From a virus (lineage: Duplodnaviria; Heunggongvirae; Uroviricota; Caudoviricetes), in the IMG/VR virus record IMGVR_UViG_2547132218_000005, positions 1 through 4,140 of that record: 4,140 bases of DNA; one strand, written 5' to 3'. Within the stretch, counting starts at the first letter, position 1. Each line of letters opens with the position of its first letter. Below are positions 1 through 4,140 of this stretch, piece after piece. The position numbers and the translations under genes were made by a program. The notes below the pieces were generated by a model. The model was not told where the DNA came from. It saw nothing but the letters and a program-made list of their open reading frames with translations, and did no database searches.

Positions 1-20
1 CAGCAAACCGTTTTGCCCGA

Positions 21-36
21 TATGGGAATTCCCATA
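21..36. repeat. 16-bp perfect palindrome TATGGGAATTCCCATA
   Basis: Self-complementary over all 16 positions, lying 11 nt downstream of the small hydrophobic ORF stop. An adjacent imperfect inverted repeat gcaaa-ccgt-tttgc lies at 3..16. Candidate protein-binding site (operator-like) or RNA hairpin. Confidence 0.55.
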
Positions 37-46
37 CGGAATGAAT

Positions 47-151
47 TCAGTTCCCCAGGCGCTCCATCAAAAACACAACCAGGCAGTAAACACCCACAAC
101 AGCAATAACAGCCAGAGCGCCTTCCATTACCAGTGAAATATCATCCGACAT
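47..151 (-). CDS. Small hydrophobic peptide (34 aa, one predicted transmembrane helix); candidate small membrane protein
   Basis: Not in the ORF track (too short). ATG 151..149 is preceded by TCACACCAAGGGAGGGAAT (strong SD, 3-4 nt spacer). My manual translation is MSDDISLVMEGALAVIAVVGVYCLVVFLMERLGN, stop TGA at 49..47. An acidic N-terminus, a ~20-residue hydrophobic stretch and a short polar C-terminus are typical of small phage/prophage membrane peptides and type I toxin-like peptides. The frame is open upstream, but the only other in-frame starts (GTG 196..194, TTG 202..200) lack an SD. Confidence 0.4.
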   Translation of the reverse strand: MSDDISLVMEGALAVIAVVGVYCLVVFLMERLGN

Positions 152-260
152 ATTCCCTCCCTTGGTGTGAATCCCGGCGAACGTTTTTACCCCCACCGAC
201 AAATAACATATACTAGAAAAGCAATAGCTATAGCAACGCCTGCAAATGCATCTGGCCGGC

Positions 261-824
261 TCATTGGTTCTCCCCCTGTGTCGCTTCTACTGCGATCTGA
301 CTGGCGTATTCGTTAATGGTAACGATAAGTTCTTGCTCGGCCTCATCCAGACAACTACCGATACCTCGCCTGTCCACTTCAGAAGCATCGAAATCTGCAC
401 GAAGCCTGGCGACCTTCAGGATTGCGGACAACACCTCATCAGGGATTGCCGGAGAGTTGGTTGACGTTTCCGAGATTATCCGAAAATTATTGGTTGACGA
501 ACCCTTATTTTCCCGAAAGTTTCCAGCCTGAAGCATGGCGGCGCGGTGACACCAGATAATCCAGCCAAGCGCCATATCCCATGCCATGTATTCTCTATCG
601 CCATTTTTTGCTCTGCGGCGATCTACAGATTCCCCGAAACGCTTCTCCATAAATAATTCATAGGCTGCCCGTTCATCCGATACTGATGCCAGTGATGCCA
701 GTGCAATTTTTAATGCGGTAAGCATGTTGTTTTGATCTTCATCGAGTCCGAACGGTATTTCATCCCGTGATGACTCAATTCCGGTAATCGTGTTCTGTAG
801 CCATTCTTTGGTTAATTCAGTCAT
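261..824 (-). CDS. Hypothetical protein (187 aa)
   Basis: ATG 824..822; long open frame with balanced composition. Weak SD (GTAGTGAAAA) and a GC stem-loop 9 nt upstream of the ATG. No family recognised. Stop TGA 263..261. Confidence 0.65.
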   Translation of the reverse strand: MTELTKEWLQNTITGIESSRDEIPFGLDEDQNNMLTALKIALASLASVSDERAAYELFMEKRFGESVDRRRAKNGDREYMAWDMALGWIIWCHRAAMLQAGNFRENKGSSTNNFRIISETSTNSPAIPDEVLSAILKVARLRADFDASEVDRRGIGSCLDEAEQELIVTINEYASQIAVEATQGENQ

Positions 825-833
825 TTTTCACTA

Positions 834-849
834 CCGCCCTTTCGGGCGG
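834..849. other. GC-rich stem-loop (6-bp stem CCGCCC/GGGCGG, 4-nt loop), function unassigned
   Basis: ccgccc-tttc-gggcgg at 834..849. On the minus-strand transcript it reads CCGCCC-GAAA-GGGCGG (GNRA-type loop) and ends 9 nt before the ATG of the 187-aa gene. No U-tract follows on either strand, so it is not a canonical intrinsic terminator. Confidence 0.5.
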
Positions 850-950
850 TCTCCTGATGTTCTGAGGGTGCAGGAATCCCTCCGGTTAAGGATTTAATAA
901 AAATCATTTCTGATTTAAATTTTCAGTGTTTAGTTGTTGGTTTATAGCCT

Positions 951-1262
951 TTATGCTTCGGCCTTATTTCTCAGCCATACACAAACAGGACCATCTTCGG
1001 TGTCATGTATCGAACCGATAAACCATCCCTCACCTTCTGGTCGCTCAGGTTCCCATGCTGAAATATCAGGGCCATCTGCGTCCAGATTAAAATCATCTTC
1101 ATCCATACTACGGATAGCCCACTGAAGATTATTTTTCTCCATCCAGGCGTTAAACTCTTCCGTTGAAATATATTCCCGACCATCACAGAATTTTTCATAT
1201 TCAGGATGCGTCCAGCAGCCATATTCATTACGTTCCACTGGCATTTCTTTAATTACGCTCAT
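951..1262 (-). CDS. Hypothetical acidic protein (103 aa)
   Basis: ATG 1262..1260 preceded by ATAAGGGGGGTAA (SD-like). Acidic, Trp-rich sequence (EYGCWTHPEYEKFCDGREY ... WEPERPEGEGWFIGSIHDTEDGPVCVWL). I do not recognise the family with confidence; resemblance to small phage DUF-type proteins is only a vague impression. The alternative 85-aa ORF at 971..1228 is in another frame of the same region and is less protein-like. Confidence 0.65.
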   Translation of the reverse strand: MSVIKEMPVERNEYGCWTHPEYEKFCDGREYISTEEFNAWMEKNNLQWAIRSMDEDDFNLDADGPDISAWEPERPEGEGWFIGSIHDTEDGPVCVWLRNKAEA

Positions 1263-1447
1263 TTACCCCCCTTATTTAATTTTCTACGACACTTTTTACA
1301 ATCATCTGGACTTTCGAATGTATCCGGCTCACGCTCATTGCCAAAATACATCCACCCACCGCAAATACTTGTTATTTCACCTTCAGCAAAATAATGATGT
1401 TTTTTCGCCATAAGTGACCTTGCCCAGCCCGGATTCGTTTTACTCAC
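1259..1447 (-). CDS. Small Cys/His-containing protein (62 aa), possible metal-binding, GTG start
   Basis: GTG at 1447..1445 is preceded by TCGCAAAGGAGGCAACAA (AAGGAGG about 6 nt upstream), a very good SD. An alternative internal ATG lies at 1411..1409. Contains HH...C(GGW)...C-K-K-C, which could form a small zinc-binding knuckle. Stop TGA 1261..1259 overlaps the next ATG (ATGA). Confidence 0.55.
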   Translation of the reverse strand: MSKTNPGWARSLMAKKHHYFAEGEITSICGGWMYFGNEREPDTFESPDDCKKCRRKLNKGGK

Positions 1448-1800
1448 TTGTTGCCTCCTTTGCGAAGCTCTGCGACTAACTCGTCACATATGTGCGTCAA
1501 AGAGCAAAGTTTGATTGCTGGATGTTCGCGCACCATCTCCACACCCTGCGCCCGCAATTCTGCCAGAAAAGCGTAGGGGTCAGTTTTTTCACTGTGGTAC
1601 ATGGCATCATAGATAATCATTGCAGCGACACCTGCCTGTCCTGCATCTGTGACGGATATATGCTCAAGGGCTACGGCCATTGCGTGTTTCAACCTCTCAT
1701 TTTCCACCTCAAGCACCACACGATTAGCCTCCAGCTCTTCTATGCGTTTTTTTGCTGCTCCCAGCTCAACACGCAGCTCCTGATAGTTAATCTCGCTCAT
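1444..1800 (-). CDS. Hypothetical protein with N-terminal coiled-coil (118 aa)
   Basis: ATG 1800..1798 preceded by GCGGGAGGAAGGAGA (strong SD). N-terminus ELRVELGAAKKRIEELEANRVVLEVENERLKHAMAVALEH has heptad-like charged/hydrophobic periodicity. Architecture is like prophage Ea22-type coiled-coil proteins, but I cannot assert family membership. Stop TGA 1446..1444 overlaps the next start (GTGA). Confidence 0.65.
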   Translation of the reverse strand: MSEINYQELRVELGAAKKRIEELEANRVVLEVENERLKHAMAVALEHISVTDAGQAGVAAMIIYDAMYHSEKTDPYAFLAELRAQGVEMVREHPAIKLCSLTHICDELVAELRKGGNK

Positions 1801-2021
1801 TCTCCTTCCTCCCGCACTGCTGTTTTATATGCCCGAAGCACATGCGATGTTTTTCCTGACACAGTGCTTCTCAGAAAGAAAATTCCACTGGTGTTTATTA
1901 CCAGATACGGGTCAGCAAGACGCAGCATATCCAGTATGTGATTATGTTTTCTTGTTTCCAGCACCGTACTTGAAATAAGCATATGTGACACGGGGCCGAA
2001 ATCATGATATCTGATTTTCAT
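1797..2021 (-). CDS. Hypothetical protein (74 aa)
   Basis: ATG at 2021..2019 preceded by CAGCAGGGTGATGAT (moderate SD), 21 nt downstream of the preceding gene's stop. Its stop TGA (1799..1797) overlaps the next gene's ATG (1800..1798) as ATGA. No recognisable motif; the composition is less protein-like than its neighbours, hence the lower confidence. Confidence 0.45.
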   Translation of the reverse strand: MKIRYHDFGPVSHMLISSTVLETRKHNHILDMLRLADPYLVINTSGIFFLRSTVSGKTSHVLRAYKTAVREEGE

Positions 2022-2042
2022 ATCATCACCCTGCTGTAAAAA

Positions 2043-2753
2043 TTACCCGTTATCTCCTGTCGTTATTTTCTGTATGACATCACGATGCTTATTAATTTCC
2101 CGCAGCGCGGCGCATAAGCGCTCCCACTTCTGAACCTGACCTTTTGCCCGGCGCAGCTCGCGGTTAGCCACATGCAGCGATGGTAAAATCAGACCATCCG
2201 GATGCTTTCTGGTGAACGACGGCTGTGACTGCACTGTGACCGCCACACTTTCCGTTTTTATTTCTTCCTGTGTTTCCGCTTCCCCGACTGGTAACGCAAC
2301 ACCTGCTGGCTGAGGAAAGGCTTTACCATCCGTTTCCGTTATGGATGCGGCTTTCGGCTCTGCCGGTAAATCAGCGCCCGGTATGCAGTACCGAAATTTA
2401 CCGCCCTGATTCACGCGAATCAGACGCCCTTTGCTGATTGCCATGGCCAGTGATGAATTCGCCCGGCGGGAGGTAATCCCGAACATCAGTGCCAGCTCAT
2501 CCGCCGTTTGTGGGCCATGATGTTCAATCGCCTCAGTCAGCATTTGCGCTGTCACTTTCGGTACCGGTGACACTGGTTCACTTTCACCAGTCTGAGTCAG
2601 CCACCACATCGACCCCTTGTTATCCGCTTCACCACGGCGCTTCAGTTTCCACAGTTCGTTGACAGCATCTTCGCGGCTGATTCCAAGGCGCGATGCCACT
2701 ACCTGTGAAGAGGCTTTTTTCAGTGCTTTCAGTGCGTCAAATACGGTTTCCAT
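2043..2753 (-). CDS. Hypothetical DNA-binding-like protein with two winged-helix-like segments separated by an acidic/Pro-rich linker (DUF1627-like, tentative)
   Basis: The track ORF is 2043..2771, but its first codon is TTG with no SD. The first ATG is at 2753..2751 ([13 protein letters not shown]...) and is preceded by GTCGGAGGAAATATTA (GGAGG about 8 nt upstream), so I place the start at 2753. Two segments ([36 protein letters not shown] and [46 protein letters not shown]) have the helix-turn-helix then basic wing pattern typical of winged-helix domains. The DUF1627 label is from memory and unverified. Stop TAA at 2045..2043, 33 nt after the P-like stop. Confidence 0.65.
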
Positions 2754-2786
2754 TAATATTTCCTCCGACAAAATCGTTTCTCAGAT

Positions 2787-3449
2787 TCAAATAAAACCAG
2801 CTGCCTTCCGGCGTTCGTATTCCTGTTTCAGCCGTTCAATTGGCGTTGGCCCTTGCGGGTGTTTCGCCCCTTCCAGTTGTCGTCGCACTGGCGGAACACT
2901 CATCCCGTTACCAACATGCTTTGCCCATTTCGTCAGTTGCCGTTCCGCAAGTCGTTTTAACTCACCTTGCGTCATCTGGCGCTCAATCCCTCTGGTACGC
3001 ATTTCGAGGCAGATGTGGTACAGCACAGGCTGTGGCCACGGGTATTTATCACTCCCGTCGTATCGCCAGGATTCATTGCGCCAGCGCCGGTACTCTTCCA
3101 TCACGGCATCCACCGTAAGACCAAATGGATTTGCCCCACTCTCCGAAATCAGCGCAACAAACTCAGCCAGGTCCGGGGGCCACGTTTCACCCGCCCGGCA
3201 GCGGTCCATGCACTGACGGCACACCAGACGGATTTGCTGTTCAGTCATCGCACCAATCTGGGCAATCCAGAGCTTCGAAGGTGCGGCCCCGTTCTTCTGA
3301 GTCCAGCGGTTCGAATACACCTCCCCCATGAGCTCCCACAGCTTCCAGGCCGTTTCCGTTGCTGATAAATCCGTTGTCACGTTCCCACTGTTCGCGTGCA
3401 GCCCGGATTTCCTGAACTGCCCGTGATGCCGTGCCACCTGATGCTGCAT
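2787..3449 (-). CDS. Replication protein P-like DnaB helicase loader
   Basis: 220-aa ORF. The C-terminal ~150 aa align with lambda P as I recall it (DKYPWPQPVLYHICLEMRTRGIERQMTQGELKRLAERQLTKWAKHVGNGMSVPPVRRQ versus ESYPWKSNAHYWLVTNLYQNMRANALTDAELRRKAADELVHMTARINRGEAIPEPVKQ, and PPDLAEFVALISESGANPFG versus PSPGQFVAWCREEASVTAGLP). ATG at 3449..3447 is preceded by CAGCAAGGGGGGAAGCC (SD-like, ~5 nt spacer). An alternative start is the internal ATG at 3248..3246 (Met68), which sits 2 nt upstream of the initiator stop codon (ATGACTGA) but has a weak SD. Start-site choice is unresolved. Confidence 0.8.
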   Translation of the reverse strand: MQHQVARHHGQFRKSGLHANSGNVTTDLSATETAWKLWELMGEVYSNRWTQKNGAAPSKLWIAQIGAMTEQQIRLVCRQCMDRCRAGETWPPDLAEFVALISESGANPFGLTVDAVMEEYRRWRNESWRYDGSDKYPWPQPVLYHICLEMRTRGIERQMTQGELKRLAERQLTKWAKHVGNGMSVPPVRRQLEGAKHPQGPTPIERLKQEYERRKAAGFI

Positions 3450-4140
3450 GGCTTCCCCCCTTGCTGACTGGTTTTACCTGTGCCCTGACGTGCTGCACGT
3501 GGCGGGCAAATTTCTGCTCCCACTGAACCTGCGTGAAAACCTTCCCCTCCGCCATCCAGTAATCCCGGAATGCGGCAAGCTCAGCAGGTGTAAATTCCGG
3601 CTCAGGCAGAGCCATACCCCACACTGCTGCCCGTTGTCGAAAATCCGGCGACGGCTGCCAGACAGTAGTCATCGAAAATTTCCCGATCGGTTCGCTCAGG
3701 CCGTCCAGGTATTCAGGTTCGGCTGTCTGCAACGGCGCACCATTCGACTCACTGGTCGGAATACTCTCGCGCGCGTTATGTGTGGGGTTTAATTCTGTAT
3801 CTGTATCTTTATCTGTATCTTTATCTGTCGTGACTTGTCGTGACAGATGCGTGACACGTCGTGACTCATCGTGACAATCAGCATTATGTTTCCGCAGCTT
3901 TTCCCGCTCCCGCTGCGCTCTCTTGCGCTCTGCCGGGGATTTTGCCGTTTGCGAAACGTTACCATTGTCCTCTTTCAGCACCTGACGTTTTTCCCATCCG
4001 GAAATAAGGTCACCATCCAGAACCCGCCCCTGCATTGCATGCAAAATTGAATCAATTACGTCTTCCGTCACATCAAGCGCACTTGCTAAATCTTCCGTCG
4101 TGACATCAATGTGACCACGTAGTGACACGCCGTGACATGT
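3241..4140 (-). CDS. Replication initiator (lambda O-like role), 5'-partial, with C-terminal DnaT-like (primosomal protein I) domain
   Basis: ORF track gives 3241..4128, but its first codon is GTG and the frame stays open upstream to the window edge (in-frame codons 4140..4129 read T-C-H-G), so the true start is beyond 4140. The segment IGKFSMTTVWQPSPDFRQRAAVWGMALPEPEFTPAELAAFRDYWMAEGKVFTQVQWEQKFARHVQHVRAQV aligns closely with the C-terminal domain of E. coli DnaT as I recall it ([63 protein letters not shown]). Position directly upstream of a P-like loader gene fits the lambdoid O-P arrangement. The middle of the protein is low-complexity (K/R/E-rich, TDKD repeats) and coincides with the DNA repeats described below. 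Stop TGA at 3243..3241. Confidence 0.8.
   Translation of the reverse strand, partial: TCHGVSLRGHIDVTTEDLASALDVTEDVIDSILHAMQGRVLDGDLISGWEKRQVLKEDNGNVSQTAKSPAERKRAQREREKLRKHNADCHDESRRVTHLSRQVTTDKDTDKDTDTELNPTHNARESIPTSESNGAPLQTAEPEYLDGLSEPIGKFSMTTVWQPSPDFRQRAAVWGMALPEPEFTPAELAAFRDYWMAEGKVFTQVQWEQKFARHVQHVRAQVKPVSKGGSHAASGGTASRAVQEIRAAREQWERDNGFISNGNGLEAVGAHGGGVFEPLDSEERGRTFEALDCPDWCDD
3794..3829. repeat. Tandem hexamer repeat (TCTGTA/TCTTTA) x 6, AT-rich, abutting iteron cluster A
   Basis: tctgta tctgta tcttta tctgta tcttta tctgtc at 3794..3829, about 70% A+T. On the coding (minus) strand it encodes the TDKDTDKDTD segment of the initiator. Confidence 0.8.
3828..3875. repeat. Iteron-like direct repeat cluster A: 5 x (T/G)CGTGAC at 10-11 bp spacing; candidate origin iterons
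   Basis: Units ctgTCGTGAC (3825..3834), ttgTCGTGAC (3835..3844), agatGCGTGAC (3845..3855), acgTCGTGAC (3856..3865), tcaTCGTGAC (3866..3875). GTGAC cores end at 3834, 3844, 3855, 3865, 3875. Because the spacing is not a multiple of 3, the same DNA motif is read in all three frames of the initiator gene (C-H, S-R, V-T, L-S-R, V-T), so the repetition is at the DNA level, not a peptide repeat. Confidence 0.6.
4098..4136. repeat. Iteron-like direct repeat cluster B: 4 x GTGAC at 10-11 bp spacing, may continue beyond the window end
   Basis: ccgTCGTGAC (4095..4104), atcaATGTGAC (4105..4115), cacgtAGTGAC (4116..4126), acgcCGTGAC (4127..4136). Same orientation and core as cluster A; flanking bases are more variable. 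The window ends 4 nt after the last copy. Confidence 0.5.

Follow-up and report, generated by a model that had tools for sequence, protein, structure and literature searches.

A stretch of 4,140 nucleotides (nt) from a Caudoviricetes virus record (IMGVR_UViG_2547132218_000005, positions 1 to 4,140), hereafter referred to as the window, was analyzed; it probably carries the origin used for vegetative replication by a lambdoid prophage, located within the prophage's own initiator gene. The initiator gene was located on the - strand at 3241..4140, continuing past the window to the equivalent of position 4284, on the basis of the list of open reading frames, RefSeq annotation, translation and PHROG. 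Two clusters of phased hexamer repeats (iterons) and an adjoining A+T-rich tract were found within it. The original prediction, made from the letters of the window, was that the initiator gene contains a replication origin composed of phased iterons and, after them, an A+T-rich tract, and this was supported by the conserved synonymous sites and by the concerted change of the repeat word described below.

Iteron arrays and the A+T-rich tract

Coordinates are window positions; the gene lies on the - strand, and GTCACG on the gene strand corresponds to CGTGAC on the + strand. Cluster A (3829..3875, - strand) contained five GTCACG cores with a spacing of 10-11 base pairs (bp), seen as + strand GTGAC at 3830, 3840, 3851, 3861 and 3871. 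Cluster B (4099..4136, - strand, continuing past the window) contained four of its six GTCACG-type cores within the window, seen as + strand GTGAC at 4100, 4111, 4122 and 4132, and the two clusters were separated by 229 bp. The nine same-orientation GTGAC cores predicted in two clusters at this spacing were thereby confirmed at their exact positions, as was the scarcity of stray copies, seven further + strand GTGAC being dispersed from 546 to 2567. A pair of + strand GTGAC 11 bp apart was noted in the DUF1627 gene (2225-2240); it is isolated, and is most likely due to chance because no array surrounds it.

The total of 21 GTGAC on both strands was compared with 7.35 +/- 2.7 in dinucleotide shuffles, none of which (0/200) reached 21. 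Runs of at least three GTGAC at 10-11 bp spacing did not occur in 20,000 mononucleotide shuffles, and the window has a run of five. Tandem Repeats Finder reported 10-bp arrays at clusters A and B and a 6/12-bp repeat in the A+T-rich tract.

Since the best match of the whole window to any complete Escherichia coli genome was 96.6%, the sequence past 4140 was drawn only from records that are 100% identical over window 3200-4140 (in L001, the position is the window position + 1801). Two extra cores were found in this extension at the equivalents of 4142 and 4152, giving a full count of 11 cores, with six in cluster B (gene nt 129-185) and five in cluster A (gene nt 410-455). The predicted number of nine therefore holds for the window but not for the total, which is 11 (6 + 5) once the flanking sequence is included. 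When the units of 28 homologous loci were pooled, G followed GTCAC in 199 of 230 units, so that the core is the hexamer GTCACG, and the iteron first proposed (TCGTGAC) was replaced by CGTGAC. Between pooled cores, a spacing of 10 bp was counted 118 times and one of 11 bp 37 times. The GTCACG cores occupied codon frames 0, 1 and 2 over both arrays, confirming by frame assignment that the word is read in all three codon phases. As the 10/11-bp period is not a multiple of three and all three frames are used, the encoded peptide is not repetitive.

A lone inverted core was found on the + strand at 4067..4071 (GTCAC on the + strand, GTGAC on the gene strand, gene nt 214), about 30 bp downstream of cluster B and within Asp-Val-Thr codons. 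Val was encoded by GTG in 32 of the 33 GTCACG-class loci having 'DVT', the third positions of the adjacent Asp and Thr codons being free to vary.

The A+T-rich tract (about 3793..3827, strand not assigned; (GATAAAGATACA)n on the gene strand) is a candidate DNA-unwinding element that transcription reaches immediately after cluster A, and thus an A+T-rich tract adjoins the repeats as in iteron-type phage origins. Over 3793-3825 it is 73% A+T, with 76% purine on the coding strand, which, together with the 6/12-bp repeat, agrees with the hexamer repeat of about 70% A+T predicted at this place. Within the 800 bases profiled (about two-thirds of the initiator gene), GC content is lowest in the tract, where the gene's peak of A+T content over 40 nt also begins. 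In a set of 65 non-redundant homologues, the first 40 nt beyond cluster A averaged 68% A+T, compared with 46% gene-wide; they were richer in A+T than the whole gene in 64 of the set, and in 53 the 40-nt window with the gene's highest A+T content began right there. The tract is kept though the peptide varies (TDKDTD, DKDKDK, QIREEE, PDTDTD, QIREDKK and EKRREEE), and it is present even in hosts whose version of the gene is 31% A+T overall. A promoter and terminator scan of 3600-4140 gave nothing above chance, and no Rfam family match was detected in the window.

Conservation of the repeats and classes of repeat word

A scan of one genome per species yielded 37 homologues of the N-terminal domain (N-domain) of the initiator with 45-92% amino-acid identity, whose hosts were Enterobacterales, Pseudomonas, Bordetella, Aquitalea, Chromobacterium, Gilvimarinus, Acidovorax, Sphingomonas and others. 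The 28 GTCACG-type loci comprised about 24 of these homologues, the O157 record and phages Evi, Tritos and pAEv1818, with Escherichia, Shigella, Rahnella, Serratia, Aquitalea, Chromobacterium, Bordetella, Pseudomonas, Gilvimarinus and Acidovorax as taxa. In these loci, GTCAC arrays occupied two shared places in the gene (near nt 129-160 and nt 387-451), and the 3 kb of flanks contained no more than a few copies. Overall, about 65 non-redundant homologous genes, ranging from Enterobacteria to Pseudomonas, Bordetella and Sphingomonas, had two arrays at matching gene positions. Although only 112 bp of Aeromonas phage pAEv1818 could be aligned with the window, this phage retained 4 + 3 cores and the A+T-rich tract. 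In the complete 40-kb genome of phage Evi, the two clusters in the initiator gene were the only GTCACG clusters, and a distant second origin-like array (an analogue of oriR) was sought there but not found.

Selection on the DNA was assessed at third codon positions by pairwise identity in a codon alignment of 25 non-redundant GTCACG-type genes, with a Mann-Whitney test. The identity was 0.92 in the cores compared with 0.43 elsewhere (p about 5e-7), and 0.965 compared with 0.51 when pairs encoding the same amino acid were considered, while the spacer nucleotides between cores were variable among homologues. Amino-acid identity in codons touching a core, which encode the peptides SRNVTRGH.DVT, was 0.83 compared with 0.60 elsewhere. 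On the evidence of this comparison, the repeats are under selection at the DNA level. Conservation of GTGAC beyond that of synonymous sites had been named as a check of the original prediction; the opposite outcome, homologues that keep the peptide and lose the repeats, was not observed, since the cores were kept at synonymous sites. With 5 + 6 same-orientation cores, a non-random arrangement and synonymous-site conservation, the arrays have the properties of potential initiator-binding sites, for which at least three repeats are expected.

Distant homologues without GTCACG carried GTAACG, CGAACGC or TAACGC at the two array positions. The GTAACG class was found in Pantoea, Enterobacter, Marinobacter and viral contigs, the CGAACGC class in about 24 non-redundant environmental viral contigs and metagenome-assembled genomes, and the TAACGC class in a Sphingomonas-type group. 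In every class both arrays shared one word, as seen over more than 60 non-redundant loci. The arrays of alternative words had 10-11 bp spacing, with 21-bp steps in parts of the GTAACG class. Among the GTAACG/TAACGC-class loci (L025, L028, L204, L205, L037, L038 and others; gene nt ~120-470), cluster B often proceeded by such two-turn steps of 21 bp, all in one frame. GTAACG in codon frame 2, which would give a TAA stop, was found in 0 of 49 cases, and TAACGC in frame 0, likewise a TAA stop, was never seen. This avoidance of stop-creating frames indicates mutual constraint between the repeat word and the coding frame.

A difference at a single site was also observed between L027 (Erwinia) and L025/L028 (Pantoea/Enterobacter), which have the same protein sub-scaffold with GTCACG and GTAACG, respectively. 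An extra core in the helix-turn-helix coding region (gene nt ~220-230) read CGT CAC GTT with His (ERHV) in L027 and CGT AAC GTT with Asn (ERNV) in L025/L028, so that here the site change is the protein change.

The initiator, its cassette and the origin reading

The initiator product has 347 amino acids and is identical to WP_001262402.1, which is annotated as 'DnaT-like ssDNA-binding domain-containing protein / phage replisome organizer' (ssDNA, single-stranded DNA), and it falls in PHROG 'replication initiation protein' families. An AlphaFold2 model built with 90 sequences had a mean predicted local distance difference test score of 72, with N-domain blocks of 84-98. In this model, the N-domain consists of helices 4-11, 16-25 and 29-45, a beta-hairpin (47-56), and helices 63-70 and 74-84 followed by a wing. 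The rest consists of a basic helix (117-137), a disordered segment (142-187) and the DnaT-like domain (~200-270). The N-domain has a winged-helix fold resembling the DnaD N-domain and RepA_N initiators; it is encoded at 3985..4140 (- strand, residues 1-100, the window holding the part for residues 49-100). The DnaT-like ssDNA-binding domain in the C-terminal half (residues 203-269; 3478..3678, - strand) was identified by Pfam (E = 2e-17) and belongs to the DnaT DNA-binding domain PF17948 by both score threshold and structural match to solved DnaT C-domains.

Cluster B encodes residues 43-62 (ASRNVTTCHGVSLRGHIDVT), with strands predicted at 47-50 and 53-56, and cluster A encodes residues 137-152, or 137-164 together with the A+T-rich tract. 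From the layout of the model, cluster B is therefore predicted to encode the beta-hairpin between helix 29-45 and the helix-turn-helix, and cluster A with the A+T-rich tract to encode the disordered inter-domain linker. The intervening 229 bp encode the helix-turn-helix and wing of the DNA-binding domain plus the basic helix. The sequence between the clusters, which had been described as a K/R/E-rich linker, is accordingly more than a linker, and cluster B, placed upstream of it in the prediction, lies within the part of the gene that encodes the winged-helix domain. In O157 and E. albertii, cluster B consists of six cores, whereas Evi, Tritos, Shigella and most other taxa have four. A 21-nt in-frame indel covering two repeats and seven codons (TCHGVSL) accounts for the difference and is predicted to lengthen the hairpin.

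The N-domain scaffold was near-invariant across the iteron classes (WLRLWHDMPNDPKWR..., EDxASALD and AMQGRVLDG..GW.KRQ), and the class-specific parts of the protein were the hairpin and the basic tail. Within the winged-helix domain, which is highly conserved in other respects, class specificity is greatest in the hairpin. Specificity residues outside the hairpin were sought by comparison of class consensus sequences, but no firm call was obtained because the scaffold is too conserved and the classes are too few. Over the four word classes, the repeat word and the N-domain co-vary as a specificity pair, to which physical linkage contributes. It is conceivable, though rather unlikely, that the module is self-referential, with the DNA of cluster B serving as a binding site and also as the code for the hairpin of the domain that recognizes it. 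If the hairpin joins in DNA recognition, a change from GTCACG to GTAACG would replace His (CAC) by Asn (AAC), be silent or be forbidden (TAA), depending on the frame. Site and reader would then shift in one mutational step, and the gene would contain an initiator/origin co-evolution module, possibly with looping between the arrays.

BLAST searches showed that the two halves of the initiator gene travel separately. The N-terminal third with both arrays (3793-4136) had ~85% identity in phages Evi, Tritos and others with different C-terminal halves, and the C-terminal two-thirds matched ydaU of Rac-SA53, where it is joined to a DUF1376 N-domain. Homology with Evi covered gene nt 1-492 and that with Rac-SA53 ydaU began at nt 461, the overlap of the two, where the mosaic recombination joint falls, being the A+T-rich tract. 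The N-domain coding region and both arrays thus move as one specificity cassette, bounded by the A+T-rich tract and recombined onto varied C-terminal and loader modules. A search with window 3793-4140 detected the cassette in 2129 of 5426 complete E. coli genomes (39%), with up to five copies per genome (three in O157 strain TR01), and 3055 of the 3062 places were chromosomal. The region 3200-4140 was 100% identical to more than 230 complete-genome records, including many E. coli O157:H7 prophage regions. Set against the 96.6% obtained for the whole window, this indicates that the source of the window is a mosaic not exactly represented among these complete E. coli genomes.

Several variants of this modular arrangement were observed. 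The ydaU gene of Rac-SA53 (L004 2155-2187), with its DUF1376 N-domain and the same DnaT-like C-terminal half, has no GTCACG arrays and instead contains a perfect 10-bp inverted repeat (TGTTCAAACA / TGTTTGAACA, 13-nt gap) directly upstream, in gene sense, of the same GATACAGAT A+T-rich tract. This inverted repeat is a candidate for a different cassette of origin specificity, possibly akin to the classical Rac oriJ. In L040 and L042 (Serratia / Pantoea; gene nt ~300-700) and in P0100, P0139, P0169 and P0193, a domain of ~130 amino acids (YVYYVA..GISRNPWAR..) that is T5orf172 / GIY-YIG-like follows the N-domain as an insertion, and repeated words of the 'CTACGTA' type are present. Fusions of the N-domain to HNH endonuclease domains (PF01844 and PF14279) also occur among the metagenomic homologues.

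All sizeable genes of the window are on the - strand. The gene next to the initiator gene (2787..3248, - strand) encodes a lambda-P-like helicase loader (Pfam Phage_lambda_P, E = 1.3e-15; RefSeq 'replication protein P') and overlaps the initiator stop codon by 8 nt. According to the annotation of the O157:H7 records, the initiator gene is preceded by Cro/CI-like and YdaT-like genes.

For the origin reading, the following course of events is proposed. Monomers of the winged-helix N-domain would bind the hexamers head-to-tail on one helix face and build an O-some-like nucleoprotein complex, in which the two arrays 229 bp apart would perhaps be joined by looping. The resulting strain and rightward transcription through the gene would melt the adjoining A+T-rich tract. 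The DnaT-like domain might hold the exposed single strand, contact the P-like protein, or both, and the P-like protein would deliver the host DnaB helicase, upon which the host replisome would assemble. Cluster A and the A+T-rich tract occupy the expected site between the DNA-binding and C-terminal domains with a loader downstream, and cluster B departs from this pattern by its location within the N-domain coding region. Several points weigh against the origin reading. No report of initiator binding, unwinding or origin firing for this family was found in the literature searched. No DnaA box with up to one mismatch was detected in the origin region, the nearest one (TCATCCACA) lying outside the gene at the equivalent of position 4432. 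The third-position statistics ignore the kinship of the 25 genes. L032, L034 and L039 have no clear cluster B and carry degenerate cluster A words alone, suggesting that two arrays may not be obligatory. Lastly, the arrays lie inside the N-domain cassette, so their co-inheritance with it is partly forced by linkage and is no proof that the initiator is the binder.

The arrays might instead be sites at which the initiator or another regulator controls expression or copy number, as an autoregulatory roadblock or by handcuffing, with the true origin located elsewhere or with cluster A and the A+T-rich tract as the origin and cluster B purely regulatory. Plasmid iterons serve both initiation and negative control, and several features of cluster B would suit such a role, namely its distance from the A+T-rich tract (229 bp between the clusters), its absence or degeneration in L032, L034 and L039, and its change from six to four copies while the gene persists. 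This explanation is nevertheless improbable, as both arrays have the same word in every class and equal synonymous-site constraint, a conserved A+T-rich tract abuts cluster A as a hallmark of origins, the Evi genome has no other cluster, and the replicon would be left with no recognizable origin if both arrays were purely regulatory. Beside origin function, cluster B may have a regulatory or auxiliary role. It was also considered that the repeats are functionless as DNA and arose as a by-product of protein-level selection or of slippage in low-complexity coding sequence. The fair conservation of the encoded peptides (SRNVTRGH.DVT, 0.83 vs 0.60 identity), the low-complexity D/K/T linker encoded by the A+T-rich tract and the shifts of copy number by whole repeat pairs are in line with this. 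It is, however, very improbable in view of the 10/11-bp period that is not a multiple of three, the presence of the word in all three frames, the near-invariance of synonymous positions in the cores against about 50% identity elsewhere, the unrelated and disordered peptide that a second array encodes with the same word, and the switch of the word in step in both arrays across the classes.

A plasmid-type centromere for the partition of an extrachromosomal prophage would present a similar picture at the level of the repeats. In R1 parC and in tubC, phased 10-12 bp direct repeats are arranged in two clusters, and tubC is bound by the winged-helix protein TubR. The two clusters phased at ~10-11 bp resemble these sites, and TubR (3m9a) was among the weak Foldseek matches to the N-domain (E about 6). 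The partition NTPase and adaptor that accompany a centromere of the parC or tubC type were not found, since no ParA, ParM or TubZ-type NTPase is annotated within 10.9 kb around the gene, where the neighbors are cro/cI-like, YdaT-like, P-like and DUF1627 genes. In addition, the initiator has a DnaT replication domain with a helicase-loader gene next to it, the cassettes belong to integrated lambdoid prophages (3055/3062 places chromosomal), and the adjoining A+T-rich tract plays no role in a centromere, which makes this the least credible of the alternatives.

The origin reading and the specificity classes bear on prophage induction and on Shiga-toxin phage biology because replication amplifies phage genes (PMC7466680); the window itself has no stx gene. 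As several co-resident lambdoid prophages of O157:H7 carry the cassette, a shared iteron word bears on cross-talk and incompatibility, and co-resident prophages with the same word could cross-activate one another or compete for initiator. Knowledge of the origin would aid genome annotation. The naturally occurring specificity variants that differ by single bases (GTCACG, GTAACG and CGAACGC), on a near-invariant protein scaffold whose own gene contains the sites, would provide a compact system for initiator/origin divergence under a dual coding constraint.

Comparison with known systems

The kind of element described here, an origin in the initiator gene with iterons, an unwinding element and cassette exchange, is well known. 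In the literature searched, including a 2025 survey of lambdoid phages, no description of an origin in this initiator family was found, and the five records inspected carry no annotated origin at the initiator gene. As far as this literature goes, the initiator family itself (winged-helix N-domain with a DnaT-like or other C-terminal half), its hexamer iteron classes and its bipartite layout, in which one array in the DNA-binding-domain coding region would specify a beta-hairpin, are undescribed. The location of the upstream array, cluster B, inside that coding region is unusual.

The likeness of the N-domain to the DnaD N-domain and RepA_N initiators is one of fold only, with 8-12% identity, and generic winged-helix regulators (Crp family) scored at least as high against it as DnaD/RepA_N. 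The protein shares one domain with E. coli DnaT (primosomal protein I of the replication-restart primosome), from which it differs in scoring 94.5 bits against the 201-bit cut-off of the NCBIfam DnaT equivalog, in having a winged-helix N-terminal half with putative cognate iterons, and in acting, presumably, as an origin-specific initiator rather than in PriA-dependent restart. NCBI names many members of the family 'phage replisome organizer'. Membership in Pfam PF09681 (Phage_rep_org_N; threshold 23.3 bits) was rejected, the O157 protein having no match at E <= 1; the Evi homologue matched over the full model length (1-118) with 12.8 bits (E = 0.12), which is below the threshold, and a distant relationship to PF09681 is possible.

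In Bacillus phage SPP1, oriL is made up of direct repeats, to which gp38 binds, and an A+T-rich unwinding element, all within gene 38 (PMC6316719; PMC5615212). The sequence of SPP1 gene 38 (L281 579-1349) showed 4.6 copies of an 11-bp repeat in mid-gene (L281 938-988), after which an A+T-rich tract of 9-bp repeats follows (L281 996-1027, GC 0.20). The prophage origin candidate is similar to oriL in its location within the initiator's own gene, in the order of an array with a period of ~11 bp and an A+T-rich tract, and in the loader gene next to it. SPP1 differs in having a second, intergenic origin, oriR, ~13 kb away (PMC6316719), whereas the second array of the prophage is 229 bp upstream. 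It also has its own DnaB-type helicase (G40P, with the loader G39P), whereas the prophage has a lambda-P-like loader for the host helicase, and G38P has a C-terminal Phg_2220_C domain in place of the DnaT-like C-domain. Homology of the initiator with G38P was rejected, as hhalign of the N-domain profile against G38P gave a probability of 0.1% (E = 0.44). The idea that G38P is the founder of Phage_rep_org_N was similarly not borne out, because G38P matched only Phg_2220_C here, and hence the label 'replisome organizer' on the E. coli proteins is not based on detectable similarity to the SPP1 prototype.

In phage lambda, the origin consists of iterons and an A+T-rich tract in the middle of gene O, in the segment for the inter-domain linker, with P downstream (PMC7466680). 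The prophage shares with lambda the iterons and A+T-rich tract in the linker segment of the initiator gene, the P-family loader immediately downstream, and the same map position of the initiator gene downstream of cro/cII-like genes. Among lambda, 82 and phi80, the N-domain and iteron cassette is exchanged as a specificity unit, and a similar exchange is seen in the prophage family from the BLAST halves and breakpoints. The lambda iterons are ~19 bp long and have internal dyad symmetry, whereas the prophage repeats are 6-bp cores arranged head-to-tail every 10-11 bp. Moreover, the prophage has eleven copies in two arrays, compared with four to six in one array (six in Stx-phage variants), and one of its arrays is inside the DNA-binding-domain coding sequence. 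Assignment of the initiator to the lambda O family was rejected, since a Pfam scan of the full protein at E <= 1 gave only the DnaT domain, and the label 'DNA replication protein O' on some phage relatives is a name and not a match. In summary, the proposed resemblance to the lambda origin holds for iterons and an A+T-rich tract in the initiator gene, but the initiator is not an O homologue, and the closest experimentally characterized layout is that of SPP1 oriL.

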